A DNA stretch of 58,932 nucleotides from Eubacteriales bacterium (GTDB taxonomy: Bacteria > Bacillota > Clostridia > Oscillospirales > CAG-272): the NCBI GenBank assembly GCA_045602325.1, contig JAZSBH010000053.1, positions 1 to 58,932 of the forward strand. Direction: 5' to 3'. Shown in pieces: positions 1,548-44,044 of this stretch. The number at the start of each line of letters is the position of its first letter. The first letter of the stretch is position 1. Both the position numbers and the translations under genes were made by a program. A model generated the notes under the pieces. The model searched no databases, was not told where the DNA came from, and saw only the letters and a list, made by a program, of their open reading frames with translations.

Positions 1548-2933
1548 TTATTGCAATGTGTCAAGGTCGATCCCGCGGCTTTCCAATTCCGCACGCAGGC
1601 GCTCGGGGAGGGTATCTACCGTTCCATCCTCCAGCTTGCGGATGCCGTATATGGATTTTGTATCGGAAGGCACCTCTTCGTGGGAGCAGCCGAGCAGAAC
1701 CTCCACATAATCTCCGCTGTTCAGATCAGCATATTTTTCCTTCACTGCTTCGGCTTCAAAGTAGAACTCGTAAAAACGCGTAGACATATTGGGAGATAGC
1801 TCGGCAACAAAGTACCGATGAGTTCCGTCGGTGATGAAGTAGCCGCGCCGAATGTAATAGGGTATGTGTGAACTCATGCCCAGGTGCGAAGTAGGACAAG
1901 TGGGCCCGTCCGCAACTTCAAAAGACAAGGTCATCCCGTATTCGTCAAAGATCAATTCATACTCTCCGACGGGAAGGGCGCTGTAGTTTCCGCCCGTTGC
2001 CTTGCTGATGGACAGTGTGTAATGTTCCTCGGCGTACTCGTCGGGGGCTACCTCCTCCCCTTCAAAAGCGTATTCGGCGGTCTGACTGCCCAGATGGATG
2101 CGCTCTCCATCCTCCATGCGGTAGAGAGACCAGCAATCGCCGCGACTGAGGGGAACCCCCGGTTCGTTGGCGCGGAAGTGGACGGACAGAGATACGTCTC
2201 GCGTGGTGTAGATGCTTTGTGTGAGTGTGACGGTGAAGGGAAGCTTCGGGGCTTCCGGGGAGGTGACAGTCTCAGCCTCGGTTTCACTTTCCCTCACGGT
2301 CTCCCCCACCGTAAACTCACACCAAGCCACCGACACGTACTTCTCCCCGTCATACTCCGTGGCGTGAAGGCGGTAGGTGCCGGGGGTCAGAGGCTTGGTA
2401 ATTCTGATGCTTTGGGTTAGCTTCGCGTACTCGTCGCGCTCAGGCTCATCATAACCGGCGTCCTCAGGATAGGCAATCCCTACGGTGACAGCTCCGTCGG
2501 AGGTCAGCTTTTCCAGGTGCCAGGCGTTATAGCGATTCACTCTTTCCCCTTTGGTCTTTCCCGTCATCACCGCCGTGATCCTCTCGGTACCCTCGGGGTA
2601 ATTCTCCATCTCGGTGGCTATGGTAAAGTTCACGCCGTGGTCGCTCATCTCAATGGTACTGCCTGCGGGTTGCTTTGGGGGATCGTAGGTAGGCGGTTCT
2701 TTCCCCGCACGAATAATGAAAATCAGCACGGCCAGAGCCACGATGCCCGAAATGACGGCGGCGCCCCAACCGCTGTTCAGGAAGCGGCGGAAGCCTCCCA
2801 TGGGCTTGGCGGGACGGGTAATCCCTGCCTCGGCCTCGTAGAGCATCTGCTCGGCGGCAAGAATATAGTTGTCGGGAATTCGGCTCATGGCGGCAAAGGC
2901 GTTCAGAGCGCGGGTCTGTTTACGGTCGGTCAT
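1548..2933 (-). CDS. Anti-sigma-like single-pass membrane protein, cassette A (non-LRR ectodomain)
   Basis: 461 aa. The start overlaps the sigma stop (ATGA). Short N-terminal helix (IPDNYILAAEQM), then TM SGWGAAVISGIVALAVLIFIIRAG, then about 380 external residues with no LRR signature. Confidence 0.8.
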   Translation of the reverse strand: MTDRKQTRALNAFAAMSRIPDNYILAAEQMLYEAEAGITRPAKPMGGFRRFLNSGWGAAVISGIVALAVLIFIIRAGKEPPTYDPPKQPAGSTIEMSDHGVNFTIATEMENYPEGTERITAVMTGKTKGERVNRYNAWHLEKLTSDGAVTVGIAYPEDAGYDEPERDEYAKLTQSIRITKPLTPGTYRLHATEYDGEKYVSVAWCEFTVGETVRESETEAETVTSPEAPKLPFTVTLTQSIYTTRDVSLSVHFRANEPGVPLSRGDCWSLYRMEDGERIHLGSQTAEYAFEGEEVAPDEYAEEHYTLSISKATGGNYSALPVGEYELIFDEYGMTLSFEVADGPTCPTSHLGMSSHIPYYIRRGYFITDGTHRYFVAELSPNMSTRFYEFYFEAEAVKEKYADLNSGDYVEVLLGCSHEEVPSDTKSIYGIRKLEDGTVDTLPERLRAELESRGIDLDTLQ

Positions 2934-3481
2934 ACGTGGTATCCCCTTTCGGTGAGATAGGCGCGGAGCTTTTCGCGAGTACGGTAGAGGCGGGCGGAGA
3001 GGTTGTTGGGCTTCATTTTGAAGGCCTTGGCCAGCCGCGCCACCGAGTGGCCGTGCCAGTAGCGCAGGACAAAGAGATTGCGTTCCTCGGCGGGAAGATC
3101 CTCCAGAAACCCCGCCAGCAGCATGGGCAGGTCGGAGTCGTCCTCCTCCTGCGCAGGTAAAATTTCGGCAAGCTCCTCCAGGGTCAGTTCGAATTCCCGA
3201 TTCTGTGTCTGGCGCTGACGGTAGCGGTCAATGGCGAGGTTGCGGGTGATCTTACCCAGAAACAGCCGTAGGACGGTGGGCTTTTGGGGCGGGATGGAGT
3301 TCCAGGTCTTCAGCCAGGTGTCGTTGACGCATTCCTCGGCGTCGGGGCGGCTGTTCAGAATATTCATGGCCACCGACAGGCAATAATGTCCGTAGACGCG
3401 GGCGGTATGCTCGATGGCGGATTCGTCGCGGGCGAGATAGAGAGCTACAATGTCCGCGTCGGTCATGGGTTTGCTGTTCAT
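2930..3481 (-). CDS. ECF-like RNA polymerase sigma-70 family factor, cassette A
   Basis: Start MNSKPMTDADIVALYLARDE preceded by AAAGGAGA. Region 2 motif DAEECVNDTWLKTWNSIPP and region 4 RYWHG...RTREKLRAYLTERGYHV. Confidence 0.9.
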   Translation of the reverse strand: MNSKPMTDADIVALYLARDESAIEHTARVYGHYCLSVAMNILNSRPDAEECVNDTWLKTWNSIPPQKPTVLRLFLGKITRNLAIDRYRQRQTQNREFELTLEELAEILPAQEEDDSDLPMLLAGFLEDLPAEERNLFVLRYWHGHSVARLAKAFKMKPNNLSARLYRTREKLRAYLTERGYHV

Positions 3482-3527
3482 GGTATGTCTCCTTTCGTTG
3501 GAGTGGGGGTATGTCCCCATTATACCA

Positions 3528-3536
3528 TATAAGACG
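3528..3536 (-). promoter_or_regulatory. Candidate ECF-type -10 element (CGTCTTATA) upstream of sigma A
   Basis: CGTCTTATA lies 55 nt upstream of the ATG. Related GTCTTATA, CGTCTAAT and CGATCTATATA motifs occur upstream of the three paralogous sigma genes. No -35 element could be defined. Confidence 0.4.
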
Positions 3537-3583
3537 AAGATTTTGGGGAAATATGATGGGATTTTTGAAAAAAGTTTCGAGAT

Positions 3584-3722
3584 TTCAAATTTGGGTTTAG
3601 AGGTCTGTTTGACGAAGATGGCGTGCCTTTGTTTTTGATAGCGGGCGCACCTGCGTGTGCGCCCGCGAACGCACATAGTGCGTTCAATTCCGAAGGGCTA
3701 AAACTCACCGATAAACTCCAAT
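3584..3722. repeat. REPIN/MITE-like element, copy a
   Basis: Left end TTCAAATTTGGGTTTAG and right end CACCGATAAACTCCAAT (degenerate). The interior has two perfect hairpins, GCGGGCGCAC/GTGCGCCCGC and GAACGCAC/GTGCGTTC. Confidence 0.6.
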
Positions 3723-8246: not shown

Positions 8247-8296
8247 TGCAGGAAAGCCACGCTTTGAGGGCTTTCAAAATTCTTAATTTTTTTGAT

Positions 8297-8351
8297 TTTT
8301 CTGTAAGGTTTTCGAATTTTCCGTGTCTTATAGGGTAGAACCGATTTTGAG
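8297..8351 (+). promoter_or_regulatory. 55-bp promoter-region repeat, copy 1 (upstream of lipoprotein gene)
   Basis: TTTTCTGTAAGGTTTTCGAATTTTCCGTGTCTTATAGGGTAGAACCGATTTTGAG is identical to 9853-9907, which lies immediately upstream of sigma B. Confidence 0.7.
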
Positions 8352-8367
8352 TATGGATTTCTATCCG
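8341..8367 (+). repeat. Near-duplicate of priA 3' end
   Basis: 24 of 27 nt identical to 8208-8234. Overlaps the 3' edge of promoter-repeat copy 1. Confidence 0.85.
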
Positions 8368-8408
8368 TGAATCGGAGACGGAAAATTTTGCAATCGCCTA
8401 AAAAACAA

Positions 8409-8651
8409 TAGCCGATTGCAAAATGTTCAAATTTGGGTTTATCGGTGGGTTGGCACAGTCTTAAGGCTCCCTCCGGGAGGGAGCTGGCGCGAAGCGACTG
8501 AGGGAGAGTGCGCGAGTTAAAAGCCTAATTCTCTTTATCGGAAAAAAGCTTTTTACTCTATGCACGCGGGCTCCCCCACCGCTACGCGGAGGGGGCCTCA
8601 TAGAAAGTGCCCACCGATAAACTGCAATTTTCCTAATTATGCAATCGGCTA
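8409..8651. mobile_element. REPIN/MITE-like foldback element, copy b, with flanking 12-bp direct repeat
   Basis: Outer perfect 12-bp inverted repeat TAGCCGATTGCA/TGCAATCGGCTA. Inner termini TTCAAATTTGGGTTTATCGGTGGG / CCCACCGATAAACTGCAATTTT, GC hairpins, and an AT-rich centre. Flanked by CCTAAAAAACAA at 8397-8408 and 8652-8663. Confidence 0.6.
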
Positions 8652-8681
8652 CCTAAAAAACAAGAAAAGGAGAATCCAACC

Positions 8682-9713
8682 ATGAAAATGAAACGCCTTA
8701 CGATCATCGCCTTTCTGCTGGCCTCCCTGCTGATTCTTCCCGCCTGTGAGATCGCGGGAGACACCGAGACTCATGCTCCCGACACGACCGCCGAGGCCGT
8801 GGCGGACACCGAGACCCAAGCCGTGACCGAGGACGACAGCCTCACCCCGCCCCCTCTGCCTACCCTGGACAGCTACCAAGGCATGACCCCTGATGTGCCC
8901 TATACCTTGAAATTCTATTCCAACGGGGACGGCACCTGCGTTGTCAGAGATATCGTGGTCAATATGCTGTACGAGGGCACCTACACCGTGGAGATCCCCG
9001 AAACCTCCCCCGACGGGGATACGGTGGTGGAGGTGAGTTACCTCAGCACTACCTACAACCTGCCCCGCTACCTCACCGCGGAGGCCTACGCGACCCTGGA
9101 CGGGTGGTGGAAGGATTACTTCGACCGCTGTGTGGAGCAGGGGCTGATGGAGGCGGACGTGGCCGACTTCCGTCTGCGTCAAGCTCGTTCTTACTATATT
9201 CTGCGGGATGCTACTCTGAGCTCCACCGAGAATCTGGGGGCTGACGTGATCGCCCGCTTCCCCCTGTGCGAGCATATCCCCGTGTATGCCCTGGACATCG
9301 CCACCACCGAGGTAGAATTTGCCTACCTCTCCCAGCTCATGGCCGTGGCCGCTCCCTGGTACACCACCGAGTGGTGCTACGCCGAGCTTCTGGCCATGAA
9401 GAGACTGGCCGACGGCTTTGGGGTGGAGGATCCCCATCTGGAGGAAAGTCTGGCGGAGCACAGCGATAGCCTGGCCGGGGCTGAGGCCGTCCTCGTTCCC
9501 CATACCGTGACCAAATTGGTTGACCAGCTGCAGACCCTGTCCTCCATGGAGGTCCACCGCCTGATCTTCGACGGCACCATGGCGGAATTTGATGCCATCT
9601 TTTGGGGGCAAGTGAGCAAGATCATCATCCCCTATCCCATGACGGTTCAATGCACCGACGGCGAGCTGACGCTGGACAATCTGGAGGTCCGCTACCCCGT
9701 CCTGGCCGAGTGA
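8682..9713 (+). CDS. Lipoprotein with LRR-cap-like motifs shared with the anti-sigma ectodomains
   Basis: Signal peptide with lipobox LILPAC, and AAGGAGA upstream of the ATG. IPETSPDG and the C-terminal FDGTMAEFDAIF motifs also occur in the LRR partners of cassettes C and D. Confidence 0.8.
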   Translation: MKMKRLTIIAFLLASLLILPACEIAGDTETHAPDTTAEAVADTETQAVTEDDSLTPPPLPTLDSYQGMTPDVPYTLKFYSNGDGTCVVRDIVVNMLYEGTYTVEIPETSPDGDTVVEVSYLSTTYNLPRYLTAEAYATLDGWWKDYFDRCVEQGLMEADVADFRLRQARSYYILRDATLSSTENLGADVIARFPLCEHIPVYALDIATTEVEFAYLSQLMAVAAPWYTTEWCYAELLAMKRLADGFGVEDPHLEESLAEHSDSLAGAEAVLVPHTVTKLVDQLQTLSSMEVHRLIFDGTMAEFDAIFWGQVSKIIIPYPMTVQCTDGELTLDNLEVRYPVLAE

Positions 9714-9802
9714 GGGAAGGCGGCTGTATCAACGGTCAGTTGAGCCTTGCTTTGAATCCGGGAGGTAGCTGAACCTCTGTGTCGTTGTACTGCCGTATCC
9801 GT

Positions 9803-9838
9803 GAAAGCCACTCTTTCGGGGTGGCTTTCGGTTATTTT
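9803..9838 (+). terminator. Rho-independent terminator after lipoprotein gene
   Basis: GAAAGCCAC/GTGGCTTTC stem followed by GGTTATTTTG. Confidence 0.6.
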
Positions 9839-9852: not shown

Positions 9853-9907
9853 TTTTCTGTAAGGTTTTCGAATTTTCCGTGTCTTATAGGGTAGAACCGA
9901 TTTTGAG
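9853..9907 (+). promoter_or_regulatory. 55-bp promoter-region repeat, copy 2 (upstream of sigma B)
   Basis: Identical to 8297-8351. Contains GTGTCTTATA, an ECF CGTC-like -10 candidate, about 40 nt before the sigma B ATG. Confidence 0.7.
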
Positions 9908-9924
9908 AAAGGAGCCCGTGCTAT

Positions 9925-10470
9925 ATGGAAGATATACGCATCATCGAACTCTACTTCGCCCGCGACGAGCAGGCCATCCGCCATACGGCGGACAAGTATG
10001 GGGCGTACTGTACCGCCGTGTCCATGAATATTCTGCACAGCGAGCCCGACGCCGAGGAATGTGTGAATGATACTTACCTCAAGACCTGGAACTCCATCCC
10101 CCCTACCCGCCCCTCCTCCCTGCGGCATTTTCTGGCCACCATCGTCCGCAACCTCTCCCTCAACCGCTGGCGCTCCTGGCACAGCGAGAAGCGCAATAAG
10201 GACATGGAGGTGTCCCTCTCCGAGCTGGAGGCCTGTTTTCCTGCGCCCGACGACGGAGACAGAGGGGAGTTGACCGAGCTGCTCAACGAGTTTTTGGCTG
10301 CCCTGCCTAAGCAGGATCGCATCATGTTCGTACAGCGCTACTGGTATTCCCTCACAGCCGCACAGATTGGGGGAGAACTGGGACTTTCGGAGAACGCGGT
10401 CTGGGTGCGCCTGCACCGCACCCGGGAAAAACTCCGAGATTATTTAGAGGAAAGGGGGTATCACGTATGA
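9925..10470 (+). CDS. ECF-like sigma-70 family factor, cassette B
   Basis: MEDIRIIELYFARDEQAIRHTADKYG...DAEECVNDTYLKTWNSIPP...RTREKLRDYLEERGYHV, with AAAGGAG upstream of the ATG. Confidence 0.9.
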   Translation: MEDIRIIELYFARDEQAIRHTADKYGAYCTAVSMNILHSEPDAEECVNDTYLKTWNSIPPTRPSSLRHFLATIVRNLSLNRWRSWHSEKRNKDMEVSLSELEACFPAPDDGDRGELTELLNEFLAALPKQDRIMFVQRYWYSLTAAQIGGELGLSENAVWVRLHRTREKLRDYLEERGYHV

Positions 10471-13400
10471 GAGGCGATCTGGTTTATGAATTGATCGGCG
10501 GCATCCGCGAGGAATTCGTGCGGGAAGCTGAGCCGAAGTGTCTCTCGGTGCTCCTGACTCCGGCTGATACGGCTGTACAGCCAAAGACCTCCGCCGGAAC
10601 ACCGGACACCGGACGCCGGCTGTACACGGTCAACCCTGAGGCCGTTTCCCGCGGGCACAAGCCTCCGCGCGCGGCCAAACGATGGATGACGGCGGCTTGC
10701 CTGGCCCTTGCTATCCTCCTGTCCGCTACGGCGGGACTGGGCGGCATGGCGCTGGTTGGCGGCATGAGCTCCATGGGTGACATGGGGATCACGTCGATGT
10801 TCGGATTCGATTTCGTATATAACTTGTTCCCCTTCCTGCAGCCCGATGAGACCGATACGGGAGCCGACGACACCGATATCGATGCGGAACCCGAGGAGAC
10901 AGAAAACCCCTGCTTGGAGGGGCATGATTGGCAGACGACCGACCTGCGGGAGAGCACCTGCTATGCCCGCGGCCGTACCGATTCTGTCTGTGCAAATTGC
11001 GGCAGGACCGACACTGTTTACACCGATCCCCTGCCCCACGACTACGTGGACGGCTACTGTACCGGCTGTGGGCTGATCGAGGGAGCCGCAGAGGATTGTG
11101 TTTTCCAAATAGACAGCGATCTGTTGGCTGCCATCGGCGAAAAGGGTGCCATCGTCACCCGCGTGAATGCCGCGGTGGACGGCGAGCTTATTCTGCCCAA
11201 CGTAGGTTACGTGGAAAACCACGGCCTTCTGTCGGTCACGGCCGTAGGATCAGGTGTTTTGTACGGCGTGGAGGATACCTCCGCCATCACCCGCGTGGTC
11301 TTCCCCGATTCGGTGCGTCGCATCAACGAGCGGGCCTTCCGTGACGTATCCAACCTCCGCGAGGTGGTCTGGCCCGCCATGCTGGAGGCGATCCACTCCC
11401 AGGCCTTCCAAGGCACAGCGCTGACTTTGCTGACCTTCCCCGAGGGCCTCCGCTCCCTGGGCGATAACGCCTTCTTTGCGTGCCACGCGCTGACCTCCCT
11501 TGCCCTCCCCGCATCGCTGGAGAAATTGGGCAACGAGGCCTTTTCGGGATGCACGTCCTTGACTTCGTTGACCTTTGCCGGCGGCGGCTTCGCCATGGAC
11601 GGCAATGTGTTTGCGGATTGTACCTCCCTGGAGACCGTGACCCTGCCCGAGGGGTTGGACGTGCTGGGCTCTGCCGCCTTTGCGAGATGCACGTCTCTGA
11701 AGAATGTGACCCTTCCCTCCACCCTGACGGATACGGGACGCTACGCCTTCTCGGACTGCACCGCTCTGGCCTCTATCCGCCTGCCTGACGGGATCGCGGT
11801 AGGGGACGGTTGCTTCCAGGGATGCGTCGCCATGACCTCCATCACCTTCCCGCCCAACACCGGTTACATCGGTAATTCCGCCTTTGCGAATACGGGACTC
11901 TGCGAGCTGATCGCCGAGGGGGATGTTCAAGGCTTCGATTCCGATGCCTTTGCCAACACTCAGTTGACCTCCGTGATCATTCCCGGATCCCTGCAAAGCG
12001 TCAACAGAGCCTTTGACGGGACTCCCCTGCGAGAGCTGGTGGTTCTCGGCAGCTGCGAAGACGGCGGTATCGGCTACAAGGCATTCCTCAATCACCCCAC
12101 TCTGGAGCGGGTGATCCTGCCCGACGGCATAACGCTCATCGCGGGGTCGGCCTTTGAGGGCTGTAGCAAACTTACCGAGCTTCGCCTGCCTGACAGCGTT
12201 CAGTTCATCTATGAAAACGCCTTCAAGAACTGCTCCTCCCTCGCCGAGATCCATCTGCCCGCCTCTCTGGAGGTCATGCGGGAGTTCGCCTTTGAAAAAT
12301 GCACCTCCCTGCGTACGATCGAGGTGCCCACTATGACCGCATCCAAGCAGGAATGGGAGCGAGGCGTGTTCAAGGGCTGCTCGGCGCTGGAAAGCATGAC
12401 GGTTCCCGAGAACATCTCGGTTCTGGAGGACAGCGTGTTCGCGGGCTGTACCGCCATGACGTCCATTCAACTGCCGGCTTCTCTGACCCACATCGGCTAC
12501 GACGCCCTGGCTCGTAGCGGCATTACGGCCATTGAGATCCCCAAAAAAGTGACCATGATCCGAAACGGCGCCTTCGAAGGCAGTGCCCTGCGGGAGATTT
12601 CCTTCCTGTGTCCCGGCTCGAAGCTGACCGTGGGCACAGCTGCCTTCGCCAAGTGCGACTTCCTGGAGACCGTCCGTCTTCCCGAGGGGCTGAATTATCT
12701 GGCTCCCTCCACCTTCGAGGACTGTACGGGGCTGAAGGAGATCACTCTCCCCGGCTCCATGAGTAGCCTGGATTGCTTCGCCTTCAGAGGCTGCACCGCC
12801 TTGGAGGTTCTGCATCTCCCCGCCGGTATTTCGAGCATCCACGAGACGGCATTTGAGAAGTGCCCCAATCTGCGGGAAGTGACCATGGACGGTACGGGTA
12901 CCCGCTACGAGGTCCTCAACAACTGCATCGTCATGGACAAAAAATACAACACCATGTTCCTCTGCACCACCGAGGTGGTTCTGTCTGCCGACATGGGCCT
13001 CACCTCCATAGGCAAAGAGGCCTTCAGTGGCCGCGCCATCCGCTCCTTGGTGATTCCTGAAGGGGTGACCGTCATTGAAGACGGCGCCTTCCAGAACTGC
13101 ACCGCCCTGGAATTCATCTCCCTCCCCTCTACCCTCACGACCATCGGGGATAGCGCGTTCGGAGGCTGTACGGCTCTGCAGAGCATTGAAATCCCCGCCT
13201 CGGTCAGTACCATCGGCCGAAACGCATTCTACAGCTGTACGTCCTTACAAAACATCATCCTCCCCACCGCCACTACGGTCATTGAGCGCGGCGCCTTCGC
13301 AGATTGCACCGCTCTCACCGAAATAACGATCCCCCAAGGTATTGTTAAGCTGGAGGCCTACGTCTTCTCTGGCTGTACCAATCTGCAAAAGATCTACCTG

Positions 13401-13592
13401 TCCTCCACCGTCAGCGTCTTTGAGGAGTATATCTTCAGCGACTGCAAGGCTCTCACCGAGGTGCATCTGGAGGGCAACGTCAAGAAGTGGGAGATCATCA
13501 TGAATAATTCGATCCAGTCCAACACGAATTTCACCGTCTACTGCAAGAACGGCATGATCGCCCCCGATGGGACTGTGACCCTCTACGAGTAA
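10467..13592 (+). CDS. Anti-sigma-like membrane protein with very large BspA-type LRR ectodomain, cassette B
   Basis: 1041 aa with an ATGA overlap with sigma B. N-terminal helix LVYELIGGIREEFV, a TM at about residues 74-100, and a Cys-rich module (CLEGHDW...CANCG...CTGCG). About 30 repeats of the LRR_5 pattern follow (P..V..IG..AF..C.SL..I.LP). Confidence 0.85.
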   Translation: MRGDLVYELIGGIREEFVREAEPKCLSVLLTPADTAVQPKTSAGTPDTGRRLYTVNPEAVSRGHKPPRAAKRWMTAACLALAILLSATAGLGGMALVGGMSSMGDMGITSMFGFDFVYNLFPFLQPDETDTGADDTDIDAEPEETENPCLEGHDWQTTDLRESTCYARGRTDSVCANCGRTDTVYTDPLPHDYVDGYCTGCGLIEGAAEDCVFQIDSDLLAAIGEKGAIVTRVNAAVDGELILPNVGYVENHGLLSVTAVGSGVLYGVEDTSAITRVVFPDSVRRINERAFRDVSNLREVVWPAMLEAIHSQAFQGTALTLLTFPEGLRSLGDNAFFACHALTSLALPASLEKLGNEAFSGCTSLTSLTFAGGGFAMDGNVFADCTSLETVTLPEGLDVLGSAAFARCTSLKNVTLPSTLTDTGRYAFSDCTALASIRLPDGIAVGDGCFQGCVAMTSITFPPNTGYIGNSAFANTGLCELIAEGDVQGFDSDAFANTQLTSVIIPGSLQSVNRAFDGTPLRELVVLGSCEDGGIGYKAFLNHPTLERVILPDGITLIAGSAFEGCSKLTELRLPDSVQFIYENAFKNCSSLAEIHLPASLEVMREFAFEKCTSLRTIEVPTMTASKQEWERGVFKGCSALESMTVPENISVLEDSVFAGCTAMTSIQLPASLTHIGYDALARSGITAIEIPKKVTMIRNGAFEGSALREISFLCPGSKLTVGTAAFAKCDFLETVRLPEGLNYLAPSTFEDCTGLKEITLPGSMSSLDCFAFRGCTALEVLHLPAGISSIHETAFEKCPNLREVTMDGTGTRYEVLNNCIVMDKKYNTMFLCTTEVVLSADMGLTSIGKEAFSGRAIRSLVIPEGVTVIEDGAFQNCTALEFISLPSTLTTIGDSAFGGCTALQSIEIPASVSTIGRNAFYSCTSLQNIILPTATTVIERGAFADCTALTEITIPQGIVKLEAYVFSGCTNLQKIYLSSTVSVFEEYIFSDCKALTEVHLEGNVKKWEIIMNNSIQSNTNFTVYCKNGMIAPDGTVTLYE

Positions 13593-13664: not shown

Positions 13665-16600
13665 TTATTCCTCTCGCTTTTTGCGGAAGAAGAGCGCGGC
13701 ACAACCCATAACAGCCAAGGCCGACAGGCCAATGGCGGAGGCACAGCCCTTACCTGCGGGCTGGGTCTCGTCGGGCTCTTCGGTGATGGCGGGGACATTG
13801 GTGATAGGCTCCTCGACGGAGGAGTCTGCAGGTTTGGAGGGAACCTCGTCGGCGGGGGTGGTTTCGGGAGTGGGCTCGGTCACGGGCTCGGTGTCCGCAG
13901 GCTCGGTTTCGATGTCCTTGCCGACCAAGGCCAGCAGCTTCCTCGCAAAGTCCTTGGCCTGGGTCTGGGTCAGGAGGGGGTTCTCCAGAGCCGCTACGGT
14001 GTCGGTGTATTCTTTGGCGGTCTCGTCGCCGCCCTCGGCTTTGAATGTGTCGATGGCGTTTTGCAGAACGGTCTTGTCGCAGACGGGCTTGCCGTAGGCT
14101 TCAATCTCGCCCAGCTGGAGCAGGAAACCGTCGTTGCCGCCGCCACGGAGCTTGGTGCCGGTGACACGGACAAAGCGGGCGCTCACGGGGGTATCAAGGA
14201 TGATCTCATACTTGGTGCCGCTTTCCTTGTCGGGCTCGCCCTTGACATCCTTCACGACGGTCCAGTTGAGGCCGTCCTCCGAGAGGGATACGGTAAAATC
14301 CTCGGGGAAGACACCGTTGTCTTCCAGGATGATCTTTTCCACAGCGAAGAGATCCCCGAAGTTTACACCCACGTACTCGGTGGCATTGGGGGAGCGGTTC
14401 AGACCCACGTTGGAGGTCCAGCCATTGCCGGTCTTGCCGTCGTTGACGTAGGTAATATCCCAGCCCCAGACCTGGTAGTGGGCGGGAGTGGTGGAGGAGT
14501 AGAAGGTCTTCTTGCCCTTGGCGATATTCTCGCCGTCCTTGTAGGTGATGACGGCACCGTCATCGTCCAGGAGGCTGAAGGTCTCGGGGGAAGGAACGCT
14601 TCCGTCGTCGCAGTAGATCTCGATCTCGTTGAGAGCCATGTAGCGTGCGCCCGAGGCGGTGCCCAGCAGGTCGATGCGGATGTAGCGGGCTTCCTGCTCG
14701 CCGATGTCCACCTTCATACCCTCGGTGGCTGTGATCTTGAGATCGGAGAGGGATTTCACCTCACGCCAGGTCTCGGCATCGTCGGATACCGAGATCTTCA
14801 GATCGGCGGGGAAGGCGTTGCCGTAATCGAAAATGGAGCCGGCGGGGTAGAGGTCGATGCGGTTGAACTTCAGGGTGCGACCCAGGTCGATGTCCACGTA
14901 GGAATCCTTGCGGTCGTTGGTTCTCCAGCCGTTGCCCTTGCCCTCGGAGAGGCGCTGGCCGTCCTGCAGGCAGGAAATGTACCAGCCGTCCGAGCCCACC
15001 GAGGTGGGGGCGGTGATCATAGCGTCCATGGCCAGATTGACGGTGGCCTCGGGCTGACCCTCGGGCGCCTTGTAGTAGTCGAAGCCCTCGGGGAGTGCGA
15101 TGAAGATGGCATCGCCGGCGGCCAGAGTGAACTTGATCTTCTGTCCGTCCATGGTCATGGGGGAGAGGGAGCCGTCGGTGCGGCTGACCTCAAAGAGGGA
15201 GGTGATGGCCTTGTCAAAGGTCAGCTCGATCTCCTGCTTGGCCGAGAAGTTGTTGTTGACCACCATCAGATAGTTGCGGCCGGTCTCCTTGTGGCGCATC
15301 CAGGACAGAATAGCGGAGTCCTTTTTGTCAGCCTGTACGAAGAAATCAGCGGGAACCGAGGGCTGGCCGTAGGTGTCGGGACCGTTGAAGTACACGCCCA
15401 GAGCGTCGCACTTGACCAGCGTTGAGCCAATGGCCAGTATCTCGTGGTTGATGGTCTTGACGGTCTCGTAGTGGGCGTTGGGGGTGCCGTCGGCGGCGAT
15501 GATACCGTCACGGAAGGGCTCGGAGCGATTCACGGGGGTGAACCAGGTGAAGAAGGAGAGCTGCTTGAAGCCAAAGGCCAGGGAGGCATACATCTCGTAG
15601 CGGATCTCGGTGTCGGTGGGACGGCGGAAGGCCACCTCCTGGCAGACAGTCTGGATGTAAAGACCCGTCTTGACGTCATTCTTCAGACCTACCTCGTAGC
15701 AGGAGCGGACGTTGTTGAAGAAGCCTGCCCGATCCATGGCGCCCGCCTGGAGCGGGAAGGGATAACGGTCGAACATTAGGTAGTCCAAGGGATACCCTGC
15801 TGCAGCAGTCAGTCTCGCCCAGTCGTTCATTTGCGCCTTGTAGATCTCCTCGGAGCCGTAAGCGCCGCTGGGAAGGAAGTTGAGGTGCATATAGGCGTGG
15901 GGAGCCGCCTTCTTCAGGTTGACGTAGGCGTTCAGGTAGGCGTTGGGGTTAAAGGGCTCGTCAAGGATGTAGAAGCCGTAGGCGCCGGGGACGTTCTTGT
16001 AGCGTGCCACAGCGGAGGCAATGGCGGAAGCGGATTTGTTGGCCAAACCGCCGCCGAAGTTGCCGTCGGAGACGGTCATGCCGATGCCGTACTTAGCGCA
16101 GAGCTCCAGCATCTTGGCCTGGTTCTCCACGGTGGCCAGGGTCTCCTCGCCTGCGCCCAGTACCCAGTTGACGCCGGCGTCGGCGATGAGCTTGTACTGC
16201 TCATCGGTGATGTAGGCGGGTGTGGGAGGCCAGAAGATGGAGATCATGATGTTGTCGTCAAAGGAATACTTCTTCTCCACCACCTCCACCGTGCAGGTGG
16301 CAGTCTGATTCAGGGCGGCGCAGGTCACCGTGACGGTGGTCTTGCCCAGCTTCTTTGGGGTGATGGTGCCGTCAGCAGCTACGGTGGCCACCGAGGTGTC
16401 GGAGCTCTTATAGGTGATGTCAAAGGTCTGGGAGGTACCCTTGAAAACCGGAGCGATCTTGTCGGTCTCGCCCACAAAGAGCTCCAGGGCGGTACGGTCA
16501 AGCGTCAGGACTGCCTCGGAGGCGCCAAATACCGCGATCTCACCCAACTGTGCCAGGGCGCCGTCGTGGCCTGTGGCGGGATTGCGCTCGATGATGTAGA

Positions 16601-17147
16601 GGCGGACGAACTTGGCCTGGGTTTTCGCAAAGGTATAGGTCTTGGGGGAGGACTGGTTGATGGAAACCCCTGCATCCTCAGCGACCTTGGTGAAGGTCTT
16701 GCCGTCGGTTGAGATCTGGATCTCATATTTGGCAGGGAACTGGCCGTTGGGGAACAGGGTCACGGCCGAGATCTCGGACTTGCTGACCAGCTCCAGGGTA
16801 ACGGTCACGGGCTTGGTGTGATCCAGCTCGCGGTCATAGGGGTCGCAGGACCAACCGCCGTTGCCGATGATGCCGTCGGTGAGCAGAACCTTGGCCCAGC
16901 GCTCGGAAGGCATTTCGTAGCTGTTTTGGCCGCCTGCTTTCAGGTTGGTGCAGGCCGAGAGGGTGACGGCGGCGTCCTTGGACACCAGCGTCGTACCCGC
17001 AGGGGCGTAACGGCCGACGTCCTCCTCGGCGGCAGCGGCCGTCAGGATGGAGGCAAAGCCCACGGCGGTCACGGTGCTCAGTACCATCAGAACGGCCAGA
17101 GCCAGGGTGCCTGCCCGGCGGACGAAGCGTGCAAATGAAGATGTCAT
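13665..17147 (-). CDS. Secreted multidomain glycoside-hydrolase-like surface protein (F5/8 type C x3, Big_2, TIM-barrel-like core, C-terminal TM anchor)
   Basis: Signal peptide MTSSFARFVRRAGTLALAVLMV...AAAAEE. Discoidin-type endings (LAQLGEIAVFG, ALNEIEIY, LLQLGEIEAYG) and a Big_2-like SSDTSVATVAADGTITPKKLGKTTVTV. A T/P/E linker precedes the C-terminal hydrophobic helix plus RKKREE. Start chosen at the Met with GGAGG 8 nt upstream. Confidence 0.82.
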   Translation of the reverse strand: MTSSFARFVRRAGTLALAVLMVLSTVTAVGFASILTAAAAEEDVGRYAPAGTTLVSKDAAVTLSACTNLKAGGQNSYEMPSERWAKVLLTDGIIGNGGWSCDPYDRELDHTKPVTVTLELVSKSEISAVTLFPNGQFPAKYEIQISTDGKTFTKVAEDAGVSINQSSPKTYTFAKTQAKFVRLYIIERNPATGHDGALAQLGEIAVFGASEAVLTLDRTALELFVGETDKIAPVFKGTSQTFDITYKSSDTSVATVAADGTITPKKLGKTTVTVTCAALNQTATCTVEVVEKKYSFDDNIMISIFWPPTPAYITDEQYKLIADAGVNWVLGAGEETLATVENQAKMLELCAKYGIGMTVSDGNFGGGLANKSASAIASAVARYKNVPGAYGFYILDEPFNPNAYLNAYVNLKKAAPHAYMHLNFLPSGAYGSEEIYKAQMNDWARLTAAAGYPLDYLMFDRYPFPLQAGAMDRAGFFNNVRSCYEVGLKNDVKTGLYIQTVCQEVAFRRPTDTEIRYEMYASLAFGFKQLSFFTWFTPVNRSEPFRDGIIAADGTPNAHYETVKTINHEILAIGSTLVKCDALGVYFNGPDTYGQPSVPADFFVQADKKDSAILSWMRHKETGRNYLMVVNNNFSAKQEIELTFDKAITSLFEVSRTDGSLSPMTMDGQKIKFTLAAGDAIFIALPEGFDYYKAPEGQPEATVNLAMDAMITAPTSVGSDGWYISCLQDGQRLSEGKGNGWRTNDRKDSYVDIDLGRTLKFNRIDLYPAGSIFDYGNAFPADLKISVSDDAETWREVKSLSDLKITATEGMKVDIGEQEARYIRIDLLGTASGARYMALNEIEIYCDDGSVPSPETFSLLDDDGAVITYKDGENIAKGKKTFYSSTTPAHYQVWGWDITYVNDGKTGNGWTSNVGLNRSPNATEYVGVNFGDLFAVEKIILEDNGVFPEDFTVSLSEDGLNWTVVKDVKGEPDKESGTKYEIILDTPVSARFVRVTGTKLRGGGNDGFLLQLGEIEAYGKPVCDKTVLQNAIDTFKAEGGDETAKEYTDTVAALENPLLTQTQAKDFARKLLALVGKDIETEPADTEPVTEPTPETTPADEVPSKPADSSVEEPITNVPAITEEPDETQPAGKGCASAIGLSALAVMGCAALFFRKKREE

Positions 17148-17186
17148 AGTCATATCCTCCTTATATATGGATAGGGGGTTGTGACC

Positions 17187-17215
17187 ATTATACAACATTC
17201 TGTTCAATAAGTCAA
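17187..17215 (-). promoter_or_regulatory. Sigma-A type promoter of surface GH-like gene
   Basis: Minus strand TTGACT, 17 nt spacer, TATAAT. Confidence 0.65.
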
Positions 17216-17235
17216 TAATTTTTATCCAAAACTTG

Positions 17236-17264
17236 TTGACATTTTCCGAAAACTGTGGTACTAT
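17236..17264 (+). promoter_or_regulatory. Sigma-A type promoter of intracellular GH-like gene
   Basis: TTGACA, 17 nt spacer, TACTAT. Divergent from the promoter at 17187-17215. Confidence 0.6.
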
Positions 17265-17317
17265 GGTGCTGCGGAGCGCAGGACGCTCCGACTCAATATG
17301 CAAGCGAGGATTTGAAT

Positions 17318-19405
17318 ATGGCAGATATGATCTTCGATAAGGCCGCCAGGCTCTGGCGTGCCGGTCAAGTAGACTTTGGTGCGGGCAGCATCAGCGTCCG
17401 CATCCGCTTTGCTCACTCGGCAAACACCTCCCTGGGTACCATCATGGCCGACGGCAAGGCTATCGGCGTCATCGCCTTCTCCAGCTACGACAGCGAGGAT
17501 ACCGAGGCGCGGTGCGAGATCGATAAGACCGCCGGTGTCCACGACGTCACCGTATCGGTCAAGGGTCGGGCGACCCTGCTCTCTCTTGAGGTCTCGGAGG
17601 AGCCGGTCTATGCGGGCATGACCTACGAGCCCGTCCCTGAAAAGGCCATTATGGATATGGGCTACGACGGCTGGGAGGCCACGGATATGCTGGGGCGCAA
17701 GGTGGCCTCGGTGGAGGACGTGAGCGCCAAGAAGAAGGAAAAGCAGGTGGGTATCTTCTACTGGACCTGGCACGAGGGGCACGCCAATCTGCGTCCCGTG
17801 GACGTGGTAGACGTGCTGTCCAAGTACCCCGCCGCCGAGTACCGCAAGGATCATCCCGCCTGGGGCGAGGGTCCCTTCCAGCCCTACTGGCATGAGCCCT
17901 TCTACGGCTTCTACCGCGATTCCGACCCCTATATCATCCGTCACCACGCCGCCCTGCTCTCGGCGGCAGGTGTAGACTTTTTGCTCTTTGACTGCACCAA
18001 CGGCGCCCTGGTCTGGCGCTCGGCCTACGAGCCCCTCTTCAAGGGCTTGCAGGAGGCTCGCCGCGACGGCATCAAGGTGCCCAAGGTAGCCTTCATGCTC
18101 AACTTCGGCCCCATGGAGACCACCGAGTGGATGCTCCGCGCCCTGTACCAGAACATCTACAAGCCCGGTCTGTACTCCGACCTCTGGTATATGCTGGACG
18201 GCAAGCCCATGATCATGGGTTACCCCGACGCCCTCCCCGCCGAGGGTGCTTGTGAGACCGATACCCGTATTCTGAACGAGATCCGGGAGTTCTTTACCTT
18301 CCGTCCCGGTCAGCCCGGCTACGGCTGTGGTCCCCAGACCAACAGCCAGTGGGGCTGGTTGGAGGTCTATCCCCAGCACAAGTACGTCACCCGTCCCGAC
18401 GGTAGCTGTGAGATGGTCACAGTCGGCGTGGGTCAGAATGCCAACAAGGATCGCATCTGCACCCACTTCAACGACGTGAAGACCTTCGGCAGAAGCTACA
18501 CCGGCAAGTACGGCCACGCCCTCCTCACCCCCGACTCCTACAAGCAGGGCTACAACGTCCAGGAGCAGTGGGAACGTGCCCTCGATCTGGACCCCGATAT
18601 CGTCTTCGTCACGGGCTGGAACGAGTGGATCATGGGTATGTGGCATGAGCCCTGGCTGAGTGACAACGACTCCACCCAGCTGGCCATGGTGGATCAGTAC
18701 GACCGCGAGCACAGCCGCGACATCGAGATGGACAAGGACGGCTATCTGGACACCTACTACCTCCAGCTTGCCCACAACATCCGCCGCTTCAAGGGCGCGT
18801 CTCCCCGTCAGGCGACCTCCCCCGCGGGTATCGTGGATCTCAAGTCGGGTAGTAAGGCCTGGAGCGCTGTGACCCCCGTCTACCGCAACCCCAAGGGCAC
18901 CACCATCCACCGTGATTGGGACGGCTTCGGTGACTACCACTACGTCAACACATCCGGCCGCAACGACATCGTGGAGGCCAGAGTCTCCCGCGACGCCGAG
19001 AATATCTATTTCCGTGTCAAGTGCGCCGATACCATTACCCCCCGCGAGGGCGACGGCTGGATGACCCTGTTCATCGACGCAGACCGCTCCAAGGCTACCG
19101 GTTGGGAGGGCTACGATTTCGTCATCAACCGCGTAGCAGGGAAAAAGAATCAAGCCTCGGTGGAGAAGTACGTCCGCACCCTGGAGGAGGGAAGCTTCAC
19201 CTGGGAGACCGTCGGCACCGCCACCTACCGCGTATCGGGCGACACCCTGACTATTGCCGTTCCCCGCACGCTGGTGGGCATGGAGGGCAAGCTGAACTTC
19301 GAGTTCAAGTGGAGCGATAATATGCAGGAGCCCACGGTCATGGACTTCTATGCCAACGGCGACACCGCACCGATTGGGCGGTTCAATTATCTGTATATGG
19401 AGTAA
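17318..19405 (+). CDS. Putative intracellular glycoside hydrolase (no signal peptide)
   Basis: Start MADMIFDK follows GAGGA. GIFYWTWHEG, FLLFDCTNG and VTGWNEWIMG are TIM-barrel GH-like motifs. C-terminal beta-sandwich ends in FYANGDTAPIGRFNY. The family assignment is uncertain. Confidence 0.75.
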   Translation: MADMIFDKAARLWRAGQVDFGAGSISVRIRFAHSANTSLGTIMADGKAIGVIAFSSYDSEDTEARCEIDKTAGVHDVTVSVKGRATLLSLEVSEEPVYAGMTYEPVPEKAIMDMGYDGWEATDMLGRKVASVEDVSAKKKEKQVGIFYWTWHEGHANLRPVDVVDVLSKYPAAEYRKDHPAWGEGPFQPYWHEPFYGFYRDSDPYIIRHHAALLSAAGVDFLLFDCTNGALVWRSAYEPLFKGLQEARRDGIKVPKVAFMLNFGPMETTEWMLRALYQNIYKPGLYSDLWYMLDGKPMIMGYPDALPAEGACETDTRILNEIREFFTFRPGQPGYGCGPQTNSQWGWLEVYPQHKYVTRPDGSCEMVTVGVGQNANKDRICTHFNDVKTFGRSYTGKYGHALLTPDSYKQGYNVQEQWERALDLDPDIVFVTGWNEWIMGMWHEPWLSDNDSTQLAMVDQYDREHSRDIEMDKDGYLDTYYLQLAHNIRRFKGASPRQATSPAGIVDLKSGSKAWSAVTPVYRNPKGTTIHRDWDGFGDYHYVNTSGRNDIVEARVSRDAENIYFRVKCADTITPREGDGWMTLFIDADRSKATGWEGYDFVINRVAGKKNQASVEKYVRTLEEGSFTWETVGTATYRVSGDTLTIAVPRTLVGMEGKLNFEFKWSDNMQEPTVMDFYANGDTAPIGRFNYLYME

Positions 19406-23720: not shown

Positions 23721-25217
23721 ATGGCACATACAGCCTCCAAAAAAGCCCTCCGACACGGTGGCGTGACGGTGGCGCTGACGGTGCTCGTGGTGGTCATCAT
23801 CATTCTGCTCAACGCATCGGTCACGACTCTGGCCATGCGCTACGGCTGGTACGTGAATATGAACCCCACCCTGCTTTACCCTGTCACCGACACCTGCTAC
23901 GACTACCTGGATACCTACGTCATTCCTGACGCCAAGGAGGACATCCGCATCATCTTCTGCGACGACGAGGAGAACATCCGCGAGGATGCCACCCTTGCCT
24001 TCGTTCTGAATACCGCCGAGGAGCTGGCAGCACGGTACCCCGATACCGTCACGGTTGAGTACCTCAACGTCTGGGAAAACCCCAAGATCGCCCGTGAGTA
24101 CGGCGTGAAGGCATCCACCTCGGTGGTGGTGGCCTCCGGAGACGCCCACCGAGTCTGCACCCTGCGGGACTTCTTCCTGTTCCCCGCCGCAGATAACGAG
24201 ACCCCCGTGGCCTACACCGGTGAGAAGCGGTTCGCCGTCGCCATGAAGGCGGTGGTCTCTCCCGACGCTCCTGTGGCCTACTTTACCCTCAACCACGGCG
24301 AGTCCATGGAGGACTACGCCCTTATGTACGCCGTCACCGACGCGGGCTACATGATCAACTATCTGGACGCCCTGAATTTCGACATCCCCGAGGACTGCGG
24401 GCTCCTGGTCTCCTACAACCCCGCCCGCGACTTTACCGCCGTGGACGGTGTGTCGGGCATTTCCGAGATCGACAAGCTGGACGCCTACCTCAAGGAGGGC
24501 GGCAGATTCATGTGCTTTGTCTCGGCCGATACCTTTGCCGCAGGCGGCTTCGCCCATATCGAAGGCTATCTTGCAGATTGGGGTGTGACCTTTGAGCACA
24601 GCACGGGCGCCGAGGGCGTTGAGGAATGCTTTGCCATCCGCGACACCGCCCACTCTCTGACTACCGACGGTTATACCATCGTGGGTCAAGTTCCCACCGT
24701 GGGACGGGGCGGAGAGATCATGGCCGATCTGGACGGCACCCTTCGTATCTCCAACGCTACCGCCATCACCGTCGCCGAGGACTTTGCCGCATCGGGCGGA
24801 AGCTACGTCAGCGGCAGCCGTACCCTCACCCCCCTGCTCCGCTCCCATGCGGGTGCCGAGGCTTGGGCGGGCGGCCGTCCTGTGGACCGCACCGCCGAGG
24901 GCTACAACCTGGTGACGCTTACCCAGGATTCTGCCACGGGCGCGTCTGTGCTGGTCTGCTCCTCCACCGAGTTTGCCACAGAATCCACCCTACAGTCGGG
25001 CGTTTACGACAACGGCCCCTTCCTGCTCACCGCCATGGAGGCCATGGGCAAGGAGGAGATCCCCATTGATCTCAAATCCCAGCCCTTCTCGGACGATACC
25101 ATCCACATTCTCACCACCGCACAGGCCCGTAATATCACCATTGCCCTGGTAGCCGGTCCCGTATTGGCGGTGCTGGCCGTTGGGCTGATCGTACTCATCA
25201 GGAGGAAATTCGCATGA
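23721..25217 (+). CDS. GldG-like ABC auxiliary protein, copy 1
   Basis: 498 aa with N- and C-terminal TM helices bracketing a large external domain. Lies immediately after the ABC-2 permease, as in gldAFG-type loci. Confidence 0.75.
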   Translation: MAHTASKKALRHGGVTVALTVLVVVIIILLNASVTTLAMRYGWYVNMNPTLLYPVTDTCYDYLDTYVIPDAKEDIRIIFCDDEENIREDATLAFVLNTAEELAARYPDTVTVEYLNVWENPKIAREYGVKASTSVVVASGDAHRVCTLRDFFLFPAADNETPVAYTGEKRFAVAMKAVVSPDAPVAYFTLNHGESMEDYALMYAVTDAGYMINYLDALNFDIPEDCGLLVSYNPARDFTAVDGVSGISEIDKLDAYLKEGGRFMCFVSADTFAAGGFAHIEGYLADWGVTFEHSTGAEGVEECFAIRDTAHSLTTDGYTIVGQVPTVGRGGEIMADLDGTLRISNATAITVAEDFAASGGSYVSGSRTLTPLLRSHAGAEAWAGGRPVDRTAEGYNLVTLTQDSATGASVLVCSSTEFATESTLQSGVYDNGPFLLTAMEAMGKEEIPIDLKSQPFSDDTIHILTTAQARNITIALVAGPVLAVLAVGLIVLIRRKFA

Positions 25218-26914: not shown

Positions 26915-26929
26915 GATAAAGGAGATTCT

Positions 26930-29320: not shown

Positions 29321-29340
29321 GGAACGGGGAGGCTTTGCTA

Positions 29341-29398
29341 AGGGGGCTTTGCCCCCTGGATCCCCACCAAAGGGACTTTTTGAAAAAAGTCCCTTTGG
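29341..29398. repeat. REP-like palindrome pair upstream of def
   Basis: AGGGGGC-TTT-GCCCCCT, then a ~15-bp inverted repeat CCAAAGGGACTTTTT/AAAAAGTCCCTTTGG. Confidence 0.8.
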
Positions 29399-29472
29399 AA
29401 ACCTCAAAAACTTGAACAAGAATTTCATTCTTGTGTCAAATCTTTTTGCTTTGACGAAAGGATCATACGATT

Positions 29473-29937: not shown

Positions 29938-29963
29938 GGGATAACGGGAGAGCGGGGAACGAC

Positions 29964-29995
29964 GGGGGAAAACTTCTTTCAAGAAGTTTTCCCCC
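29964..29995. repeat. REP-like palindrome downstream of def
   Basis: GGGGGAAAACTTCTT/AAGAAGTTTTCCCCC, a near-perfect 14-15-bp inverted repeat. Confidence 0.8.
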
Positions 29996-30050
29996 GAACC
30001 CCCTTTCAAGAACTTTCAAATAGGGATATAGGATGGAAAAATATATGCTT

Positions 30051-44020: not shown

Positions 44021-44044
44021 GCGTACAATGCTGTGCGTGTTACT

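Follow-up and report, generated by a model that had tools for sequence, protein, structure and literature searches.

Several described systems resemble parts of the locus considered here, a 58,932-nt (~59 kb) stretch of Clostridial DNA (contig JAZSBH010000053.1, positions 1-58,932 of the forward strand; the window) that carries four paralogous cassettes, A to D, each composed of a gene for an extracytoplasmic function (ECF) sigma factor and a gene for a membrane protein, its partner. One such system is SigI–RsgI of Clostridium (Acetivibrio) thermocellum. Multiple paralogous sigma/anti-sigma operons are reported there in one Clostridial genome; RsgI is a single-pass anti-sigma factor with a short cytoplasmic N-terminal domain and paralogue-specific extracellular modules, each pair regulates its own expression, and signalling proceeds by proteolysis (PMC6056542, PMC10328401, PMC6582324). 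The window cassettes share the multiplied operons and the layout of the anti-sigma factor, but the SigI factor has a sigmaI-C domain (PMC7826278), whereas the window sigmas have a canonical sigma-4 region (Sigma70_r4_2). RsgI also has a conserved autoproteolytic extracellular domain, whereas the window partners have a short A-G...P..PP motif followed by a variable domain, and in the window family these ectodomains differ even between orthologous loci. Across the family, the extracellular parts of the partners are mutually unrelated. No RsgI-type family was matched by the eight window proteins (Pfam, E <= 0.01) or occurs among the 15 families matched by 71 full-length partners. Because the sigma-4 region is canonical and no RsgI-type domain is present, the cassettes are not SigI/RsgI members; an earlier note made from the sequence alone had described them as analogous to but distinct from SigI–RsgI.

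Sigma24C–Rsi24C of C. thermocellum (Cthe_1470/1471), compared here by description only, also combines an ECF-type sigma factor with a membrane anti-sigma factor that carries a folded, GH5-like extracellular module (PMC3990059); unlike the window cassettes, its ectodomain is not of the LRR_5 type, and it is a single-copy system rather than a multiplied and swapped family. Ectodomain-bearing anti-sigma factors thus have Clostridial precedents in RsgI (PMC10328401) and in Rsi24C (PMC3990059). SigV–RsiV of Bacillus and Clostridioides difficile joins a Firmicute ECF sigma factor to a single-pass anti-sigma factor whose ectodomain binds lysozyme, after which regulated intramembrane proteolysis follows (PMC9044953). 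The window sigmas, however, score 38 bits against the SigV cut-off of 190, and the partners gave no match to an RsiV-type domain. Class II anti-sigma domains (CnrY–CnrH, NepR–EcfG) clamp an ECF sigma factor with just two short helices, which make up a very small cytoplasmic module (PMC6101532), but they are small proteins without large ectodomains and have no sequence similarity to the partners. The earlier note had called the cytoplasmic module of the partners unusually small; with these two-helix clamps, such a size has a precedent.

Each cassette is probably a self-contained switch made of an ECF sigma factor and its membrane anti-sigma factor, and part of a large, unannotated Clostridial family. 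The putative anti-sigma role of the partner is well supported by indirect evidence, which comprises translational coupling, co-occurrence in both directions, purifying selection on the N-terminal helices, an N-in topology and the lack of any other conserved neighbour. To this extent the pairing proposed in the earlier note stands. Its further proposal, that ectodomains built of leucine-rich repeats (LRRs) act as ligand sensors, fares less well, since ectodomains are replaced between close relatives and that of partner C looks horizontally acquired, observations that agree with variable surface display no less than with sensing. New features would be the candidate anti-sigma module, which is unannotated, the LRR_5 ectodomains, and the swapping of ectodomains on a fixed sigma/anchor chassis. 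As the earlier note supposed, no LRR_5-type anti-sigma factor is described in Pfam, NCBIfam or the literature searched; that search returned no paper on LRR/BspA anti-sigma factors, on DUF4367 with sigma factors or on the N-terminal module of the partners (N-module), and nothing relevant on ECF sigmas of Lachnospiraceae or Oscillospiraceae.

Four gene pairs of a large Clostridial family

The four pairs reported in the earlier note were all recovered by listing and translating open reading frames (ORFs), with the eight ORFs at the coordinates and on the strands it gave. Their sigma genes are as follows.

2930-3481, minus strand: ECF sigma A, 183 residues; Sigma70_r2 and Sigma70_r4_2; TIGR02937 at 78.6 bits
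9925-10470, plus strand: ECF sigma B, 181 residues; Sigma70_r2 and Sigma70_r4_2; TIGR02937 cut-off passed
46229-46783, minus strand: ECF sigma C, 184 residues; Sigma70_r2 and Sigma70_r4_2; TIGR02937 cut-off passed
50910-51464, minus strand: ECF sigma D, 184 residues; Sigma70_r2 and Sigma70_r4_2; TIGR02937 cut-off passed

The lengths of 181-184 residues agree with the earlier note, and the motifs quoted there are invariant in an alignment of all four; the other window sigmas are 49-54% identical to sigma B. Profile searches of the eight proteins against Pfam placed ECF sigma domains in four of them and LRR_5 in partners B, C and D. Sigma70_r2 and Sigma70_r4_2 are the only Pfam domains in the sigmas, which reach ~62-78 bits on the general ECF model TIGR02937 (cut-off 42.9 bits) and are therefore members of the ECF group (group 4). 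They are minimal sigma2-sigma4 ECF factors, with no C-terminal extension and no conserved neighbour besides the partner. None reaches the cut-off of a curated NCBIfam ECF subfamily (SigV, 38 of 190 bits; SigW, 34-38 of 209 bits; SigM, SigX, SigY and SigZ), so that by sequence they fall outside every named Firmicute ECF subfamily. The cassettes do have the conserved membrane protein at position +1 that serves in ECF classification (PMC7826278). The ORF of sigma A can be extended upstream to 3676, but the start is placed at 3481, as in the earlier note, because a promoter at 3518-3559 and a ribosome-binding site support it. A further candidate pair (29425-30009 and 25004-29428) was rejected, as its ORFs lie on the non-coding strand opposite real genes.

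All four junctions in the window read ...GTATGA..., with the sigma stop codon overlapping the partner start codon as described before, and the 4-nt overlap recurs in 79 of the 82 pairs scored in the window and 77 related loci fetched for comparison (cited below by labels such as L001). The cassettes are a family of thousands and are not special to the source genome. Homologues of sigma B number more than 5,176 at E <= 1e-10, and in a census limited to one genome per species at least 577 loci were counted, most of them from uncultured gut Clostridia. Oscillospiraceae, Lachnospiraceae and metagenome-assembled genomes (MAGs) from ruminants, horses and humans are among the sources. The family also occurs in cultured species, among them Intestinibacter bartlettii, Vermiculatibacterium agrestimuris, Brotaphodocola catenula and Alitiscatomonas aceti; the strains of the first two are DSM 16795 (L059) and DSM 112226 (L066). 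Tandem arrays are common, and the fetched pieces, within which copy number per draft genome was counted, hold 12 copies in JAFULU and 8 in JAGBAS.

The association between sigma and partner was scored in both directions with a hidden Markov model (HMM) built from the first 40 residues of the partners (i-E <= 1e-3), in 2,636 stop-to-stop segments of at least 90 residues from ~700 kb. An ORF with the N-terminal motif comes next in 95 of the 100 sigma ORFs that have enough downstream sequence. Conversely, 87 of 88 such ORFs lie directly behind a sigma gene, and the remaining one lies at a contig edge. Since this sample is centred on sigma genes, a separate, unbiased search was started from the N-module instead. 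A word-indexed search with a 95-residue N-module found one protein, whereas an exhaustive profile search of representatives with the A/C/D-type N-module found 440 clusters, 136 of them at E <= 1e-10. In all of the best 150 of the 440 the module starts at residues 1-16, and protein lengths run from 66 to 928 residues. The genomic context of eight proteins found in this way was examined: in seven cases an ECF sigma gene comes immediately before and overlaps by 4 nt, and the gene upstream of the eighth is cut by the contig end.

At one locus (L005, 7029-7743, plus strand) the sigma is naturally fused in frame to the partner N-helix and transmembrane (TM) segment (...LAKRGVS-NVRESHIFGYADGICDELLLEAEP...). 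A search for further fusions found the N-module never away from the N-terminus in the best 150 matches.

Partner architecture and ectodomain exchange

The partners of the window share an N-terminal module and a membrane helix and differ in what follows.

1548-2933, minus strand: partner A, 461 residues; N-terminal helices, TM at about residues 55-76, beta-rich ectodomain without LRRs
10467-13592, plus strand: partner B, 1041 residues; N-helix at residues 1-23 (10467-10535), TM at about residues 73-99 (10683-10763), Cys-rich segment, long LRR_5 solenoid
45972-46232, minus strand: conserved module of partner C, residues 1-87; predicted helices 3-11 and 15-21, juxtamembrane helix 38-44, TM 46-68, Pro-rich linker (AlphaFold2)
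44844-45971, minus strand: ectodomain of partner C; BspA-type LRR_5 solenoid, C-terminal cap, low GC
49753-50913, minus strand: partner D, 386 residues; N-helix, SGWFAAAISG TM segment, LRR_5 ectodomain

The LRR_5 repeats attributed earlier to partners B, C and D are all above the gathering cut-off of 27.7 bits in Pfam (B: E = 1e-170, 559 bits, in 8 stretches; C: E = 4e-60, 202 bits; D: E = 1e-21, 77 bits). Partner A has no LRR_5 match and only a sub-threshold one to Big_14; its AlphaFold2 model, made without an alignment, has a predicted local distance difference test (pLDDT) score of 40 and was used for secondary structure only, not for fold search. The membrane segment said to be common to A, C and D (RF..SGWGAA.ISG.VA..VL..II.AG) was recovered, as was the C-terminal cap G-(T/N)-x-x-(D/K)-W-x-x-I, which reads GNVKKWEII in B, GTAEDWAKI in C and GTRKDWEKI in D.

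Across the 77 loci and the window, partners run from an N-terminal motif (L..LG.IDD.FI.EA) through basic residues to a TM helix at residues 35-80 and then to 100-950 further residues. In the window partners, too, basic residues precede the TM helix. The partner is a type II (N-in) single-pass membrane protein, and its cytoplasmic part of 35-78 residues is acidic and helical. Purifying selection acts on the first 25-45 cytoplasmic residues, which hold the short helices: for instance, the first 24 codons of partner B differ from those of L001 by 7 synonymous codons and 1 non-synonymous codon, and other orthologue pairs are similar. In an AlphaFold2 model of P0182, the representative of the partner-C cluster, built on a 94-sequence alignment (pLDDT 83), helices 3-11 and 15-21 (pLDDT 62-82) are followed by a juxtamembrane helix (38-44) and the TM helix (46-68); next come a Pro-rich linker, which is disordered, and an LRR solenoid whose C-terminal cap is helical. 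The two short helices predicted at the N-terminus may be comparable with the two-helix clamp of class II anti-sigma domains. No difference in divergence between paralogues was seen between the N-helix and the TM helix when the two were compared for a sign of a specificity interface, and so no specificity interface is claimed.

In 122 A/C/D-type representatives the TM helix hardly varies along one face and at its outer boundary (G46 94%, A50 100%, V56 97%, A67 92%, G68 99%), nor do the prolines beyond it (PP75-76; P76 98%), although these values are somewhat biased because the representatives were selected with a profile that included the same segment. Such conservation is unusual for a plain anchor and would suit helix packing or recognition by a protease. 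In RsiV, the first cut is made by signal peptidase, and by analogy the conserved A-G at the outer TM end of the partners would suit a cut of this kind.

Foldseek returned 4FS7, 4GT6, 4H09, 4CP6 and 6MLX as the top matches of the LRR model. The closest solved structures are thus cell-surface LRR proteins of Bacteroides, Faecalibacterium and Eubacterium (4FS7, 4GT6, 4H09), pneumococcal PcpA (4CP6) and TpLRR of T. pallidum (6MLX), with which the ectodomains of B, C and D share repeat type and fold. The BspA-type LRR_5 proteins known to us are lipoproteins, choline-binding proteins or secreted proteins, and we know of none with a sigma-linked N-terminal module. Of the ectodomains that can be recognised, LRR_5 is the most frequent (20 of 71 and 15 of 94 sampled partners); the majority match no Pfam family, and MG2, beta-propeller, Big_14, DUF4625 or RHS occur in a few.

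Synteny with the window extends to several MAGs, whose nucleotide identity to it is 75-89%. In each of them, homology spans the flanking core genes, the sigma gene and the first 15-115 codons of the partner, stops, and resumes beyond the partner gene. For partner A it ends at window positions 2700-2556 and returns near 1530-1380, and at the yicC-linked locus of this cassette no fewer than four distinct ectodomains occur, in the window, in L033, in L042/L044 and in L078. For partner B, nucleotide homology to L001 ends at 10534. The comparisons for cassettes C and D are as follows.

Cassette C against L028: sigma 93% identical, first 35 partner residues 77%, ectodomain unrelated (462 against 635 residues), with the break at window position 45970
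Cassette C against L026 and L032: LRR ectodomain 37-40% identical; sigma 84-86% between the L026, L028 and L032 orthologues
Cassette D against L028: ectodomain kept, 81% identical; sigma about 88-89% by inference
Cassette D against L026, L027 and L039: sigma 86-89%, first 35 residues 69-71%, ectodomain replaced

Among pairs with sigmas at least 85% identical, the first 35 partner residues average 81% identity and the ectodomains 35%, and in 45% of the pairs the ectodomains are essentially unrelated. The GC content at third codon positions (GC3) is 0.76-0.77 in sigma C and its N-module and 0.50 in the ectodomain of partner C (47% GC). This break in composition coincides with the break in homology and thus points to acquisition of the ectodomain from outside. 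A membrane-protein gene with no Pfam family (44045-44809, minus strand, 44% GC), downstream of partner C, lies inside the same variable segment, and window positions 43970-46175 have no counterpart in L026.

Predicted promoters, a proposed switch and its alternatives

Most sigma genes of the family are preceded by a conserved bipartite motif, in which T-rich sequence leads into a -35 box and, after a spacer of ~12 nt, a -10 element CGTCT(T/A)ATA followed by GGTGAAGG. A position weight matrix (PWM) built without the window's own sites finds exactly four sites in the window, which score 28-36 bits where shuffled sequence reaches 15.6 bits at most: one upstream of each of sigmas A, B and C, and one at 8301-8342.

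3518-3559, minus strand: predicted ECF-type promoter A; -35 CATCATATTTCC, -10 CGTCTTATA; 36 bits, the best match in the window; -35 kept in the A-clade orthologues L033, L036, L042 and L044
9857-9898, plus strand: predicted ECF-type promoter B; -35 CTGTAAGGTTT, -10 CGTGTCTTATA; 28.8 bits; kept in the B-clade loci L001-L004
46817-46858, minus strand: predicted ECF-type promoter C; -35 GCGGGACATTT, -10 CGATCTATATA; 27.7 bits; kept in the C-clade loci L022, L026, L027 and L028
8301-8342, plus strand: exact second copy of the sigma-B promoter; 28.8 bits; inside a 61-nt direct repeat (8297-8357 and 9853-9913)
8682-9713, plus strand: lipoprotein gene, 343 residues, no Pfam family; candidate member of the sigma-B regulon
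9802-9830, plus strand: terminator-like hairpin that separates the lipoprotein gene from cassette B

A promoter of the ECF type, with an AAC-like -35 and a CGT-containing -10, can thus be read in the sequence upstream of sigmas A, B and C, but not of D, for which the candidate AAACCC-N15-CGTCTAAT (~51485-51515) is weak. The -35 box is constant within a clade and differs between clades in step with the recognition helix of sigma-4: CATCATATTTCC occurs with KPNNLSARLYRTREKLR in clade A, CTGTAAGGTTT with SENAVWVRLHRTREKLR in clade B, and GCGGGACATTT with TPKAVTMRLSRTREKLR in clade C. This covariation suggests the pattern expected of autoregulated, mutually insulated ECF circuits. Because an exact copy of the sigma-B promoter precedes it, the lipoprotein gene 8682-9713 is a good candidate for the sigma-B regulon. 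In L003, an ECF promoter (L003 3310) precedes the orthologous lipoprotein gene and the sigma gene behind it has none, and extra promoter copies lie 5' of membrane-protein genes in L073, L074 and L035. Of the neighbours that the earlier note considered candidate regulon members, this lipoprotein gene is retained; the F5/8-type-C surface protein, the GH123 glycosidase and the 661-residue lipoprotein have no PWM site.

Taken as a switch, a cassette would work as follows. The N-terminal helices would clamp the sigma factor at the membrane, probably in the manner of a two-helix class II domain. A change in the ectodomain, such as ligand binding, damage or shedding, would cause the partner to be cut close to the conserved A-G...P..PP boundary, where the TM helix ends on the outside, and intramembrane cleavage would then release the sigma factor. 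Once freed, it would drive its own operon in a positive feedback and a few envelope genes, for example the lipoprotein gene 8682-9713, while distinct -35 boxes would keep the four circuits apart. Recombination just past the N-helix or the TM helix would fit new ectodomains, most often LRR_5, onto an unchanged sigma/anchor chassis. A broader proposal, which we advance only tentatively, is that a signalling chassis stays fixed, made of the sigma factor and residues 1 to 25-90 of its partner, which would comprise a novel anti-sigma domain of very small size and a TM helix conserved on one face. Gut Clostridia would add interchangeable ectodomains to this chassis by recombination, sometimes from foreign DNA; each strain might then possess 4-12 or more surface-to-promoter channels, insulated from one another and private to the strain, with BspA-type LRRs as the commonest input.

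The same observations can be read as variable units of surface-protein expression. The partner would then act outside the cell as an adhesin or surface coat of the BspA or PcpA kind (PcpA is an adhesin), the sigma factor would only switch its own operon, and the anti-sigma contact would give feedback or bistability; the paralogues and swapped ectodomains would be a repertoire of surface variation towards phage, host antibody or niche rather than sensors controlling other genes. We regard this reading as rather unlikely, though it deserves serious attention. Ectodomains are replaced in syntenic relatives while the sigma stays 84-93% identical, cassettes stand in tandem arrays with up to 12 copies per draft genome, and the nearest solved structures are surface LRR proteins of gut bacteria, PcpA (a pneumococcal vaccine antigen) and TpLRR of T. 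pallidum. The ectodomain of partner C and the next gene are foreign in composition (GC3 0.50 against 0.76-0.77), and the promoter sites of the window lie only at cassettes and at one lipoprotein gene, although that count spans 59 kb. Variable display stays alive because ectodomains are replaced so quickly, are foreign in composition in the case of C, and are accompanied by promoter matches that are very local, but a mere anchor needs neither a conserved TM face nor a juxtamembrane motif. Variable display would still require the anti-sigma contact, and so differs from the proposed switch in purpose and not in mechanism. A more distant alternative is that the N-module is an unusually long signal peptide or signal anchor, cut at the conserved A-G, on proteins whose genes the adjacent sigma factor happens to transcribe; the module would not bind the sigma factor at all, the latter being controlled otherwise. 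The small residues A67-G68 followed by prolines would resemble a signal-peptidase site, and conserved signal-peptide motifs such as YSIRK, which are used by Gram-positive bacteria, offer a precedent; moreover, Pfam and PDB profile searches detected no known anti-sigma domain in the partners. The module nevertheless lies directly behind a sigma gene in 87 of 88 local cases and in seven of the eight proteins found from the module itself (the eighth has its upstream gene cut off), and its acidic, helical cytoplasmic part of 35-78 residues is far longer than the n-region of a signal peptide. Other exported proteins of the window carry ordinary signal or lipoprotein peptides, the sigma has neither a C-terminal extension nor an alternative conserved neighbour to regulate it, and an in-frame sigma-partner fusion exists in L005, all of which makes this alternative improbable. 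That the genes are chance neighbours or plain operon partners without a regulatory link, with the repeats in the window due to gene duplication, is a formal possibility to which we give almost no credence, given the 4-nt overlap and the pairing across ~100 pairs from Oscillospiraceae, Lachnospiraceae, Peptostreptococcaceae and others.

Several results weigh against the switch of sigma and anti-sigma factor that we prefer. The N-module belongs to no known anti-sigma family, and neither Pfam nor NCBIfam covers it with a family; the first 80 residues of the partners gave only insignificant profile matches to DUF3379 and DUF4179 (best E ~0.004), and a profile of these residues found no relative among PDB sequences. 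Likewise, no anti-sigma family is among the 15 Pfam families matched by the 71 full-length partners (E <= 0.001), and no class I anti-sigma profile (zf-HC2, RskA, RseA_N or DUF4179-linked) matched them, in line with the absence of zf-HC2 and RskA from the partners noted earlier and seen again in Pfam. Class I domains, three-helix bundles to which a fourth helix is added, span about 80-90 residues, against 35-78 in the cytoplasmic part of the partners. For three partners that come from named cultured species, the NCBI name is 'hypothetical protein', and the UniRef name of one cluster is 'DUF4367 domain-containing protein'. Adjacency alone could keep the N-module with the sigma gene when recombination falls further downstream, and frequent replacement of the ectodomain is unusual for a dedicated sensor. 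Sigma D has no strong family promoter upstream (PWM ~6). The fused sigma of L005 is a degenerate member of the B clade (DADDCTHLA instead of DAEECVNDT) cut by the contig end, and no fused relatives occur among its 9 database matches.

If the chassis proposal is true, it would describe the first signalling role for LRR_5 proteins of gut bacteria. Few surface proteins of gut anaerobes are as abundant, or as poorly understood, as the BspA-type LRR proteins, and a link between a sizeable share of them and sigma factors would give them a testable function. The annotation gap is wide: more than 5,000 sigma homologues, 440 clusters of one type of N-module and up to 12 copies per draft genome exist, and yet the N-module has no family. 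A sigma-binding helix of ~25 residues with clade-specific -35 boxes would offer synthetic biology compact, orthogonal sigma/anti-sigma/promoter parts. For evolution, the sharp break in homology and composition right past the anchor shows that close relatives exchange domains on what is probably a signalling scaffold, and such swapping bears on surface differences among strains of one gut species.

Neighbouring genes and minor observations

Between cassettes D and C, on the same minus strand, lie two genes that are possibly co-transcribed with cassette D, judging from short intergenic gaps.

48966-49646, minus strand: HAD-like gene
46925-48910, minus strand: 661-residue lipoprotein gene

This stretch is syntenic in L022, L026, L027, L028 and L032 and has no promoter match. 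A stretch of 44.6% GC immediately upstream of the sigma-D region encodes two small membrane proteins, both multi-pass and paralogous to each other (52711-53190 and 53219-53821, minus strand). A homologue directly precedes sigma D in L028.

Window positions 8248-9799 (1.55 kb), which include the lipoprotein gene 8682-9713, are missing from the closest relative, L001, and the 61-nt repeat copies lie near both ends; the segment looks like an insertion or a deletion by recombination between the promoter copies. Residues ~100-120 of this lipoprotein (EIPETSPDGDTVVEV) resemble the segment that precedes the LRRs in partners C (RIPETSPDGLIVRY) and D (HIPPKDDQGRDVLG), and the lipoprotein and the LRR ectodomains may share an origin.

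A short repeat, TAAACCCAAATTTGAA, occurs in four copies (0.01 expected) at 3584-3599, 8426-8441, 41620-41635 and 51503-51518, all on the minus strand. Each copy is intergenic and stands beside a different GC-rich palindrome, and the copy before sigma D lies 15 nt from CGTCTAAT. The repeat is also present upstream of cassettes in L003, L012, L015 and L033. Rfam and tRNA scans of the window were both empty.

Three further genes, none with a family promoter, encode a large surface protein that combines a Big_2 domain with F5/8 type C domains, three in number (13665-17303, minus strand), a 695-residue protein with a weak CBM6 match (17318-19405, plus strand) and a GH123 glycosidase (42211-43890, minus strand); together they point to foraging on host or diet glycans. 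Near the end of the window, a 322-residue ORF (56031-56999, plus strand) has 31.7% GC in a genome of 57% GC and is probably foreign DNA. It is followed by a gene for an HTH_XRE-type regulator (57296-58474), a paralogue of 32092-33330.

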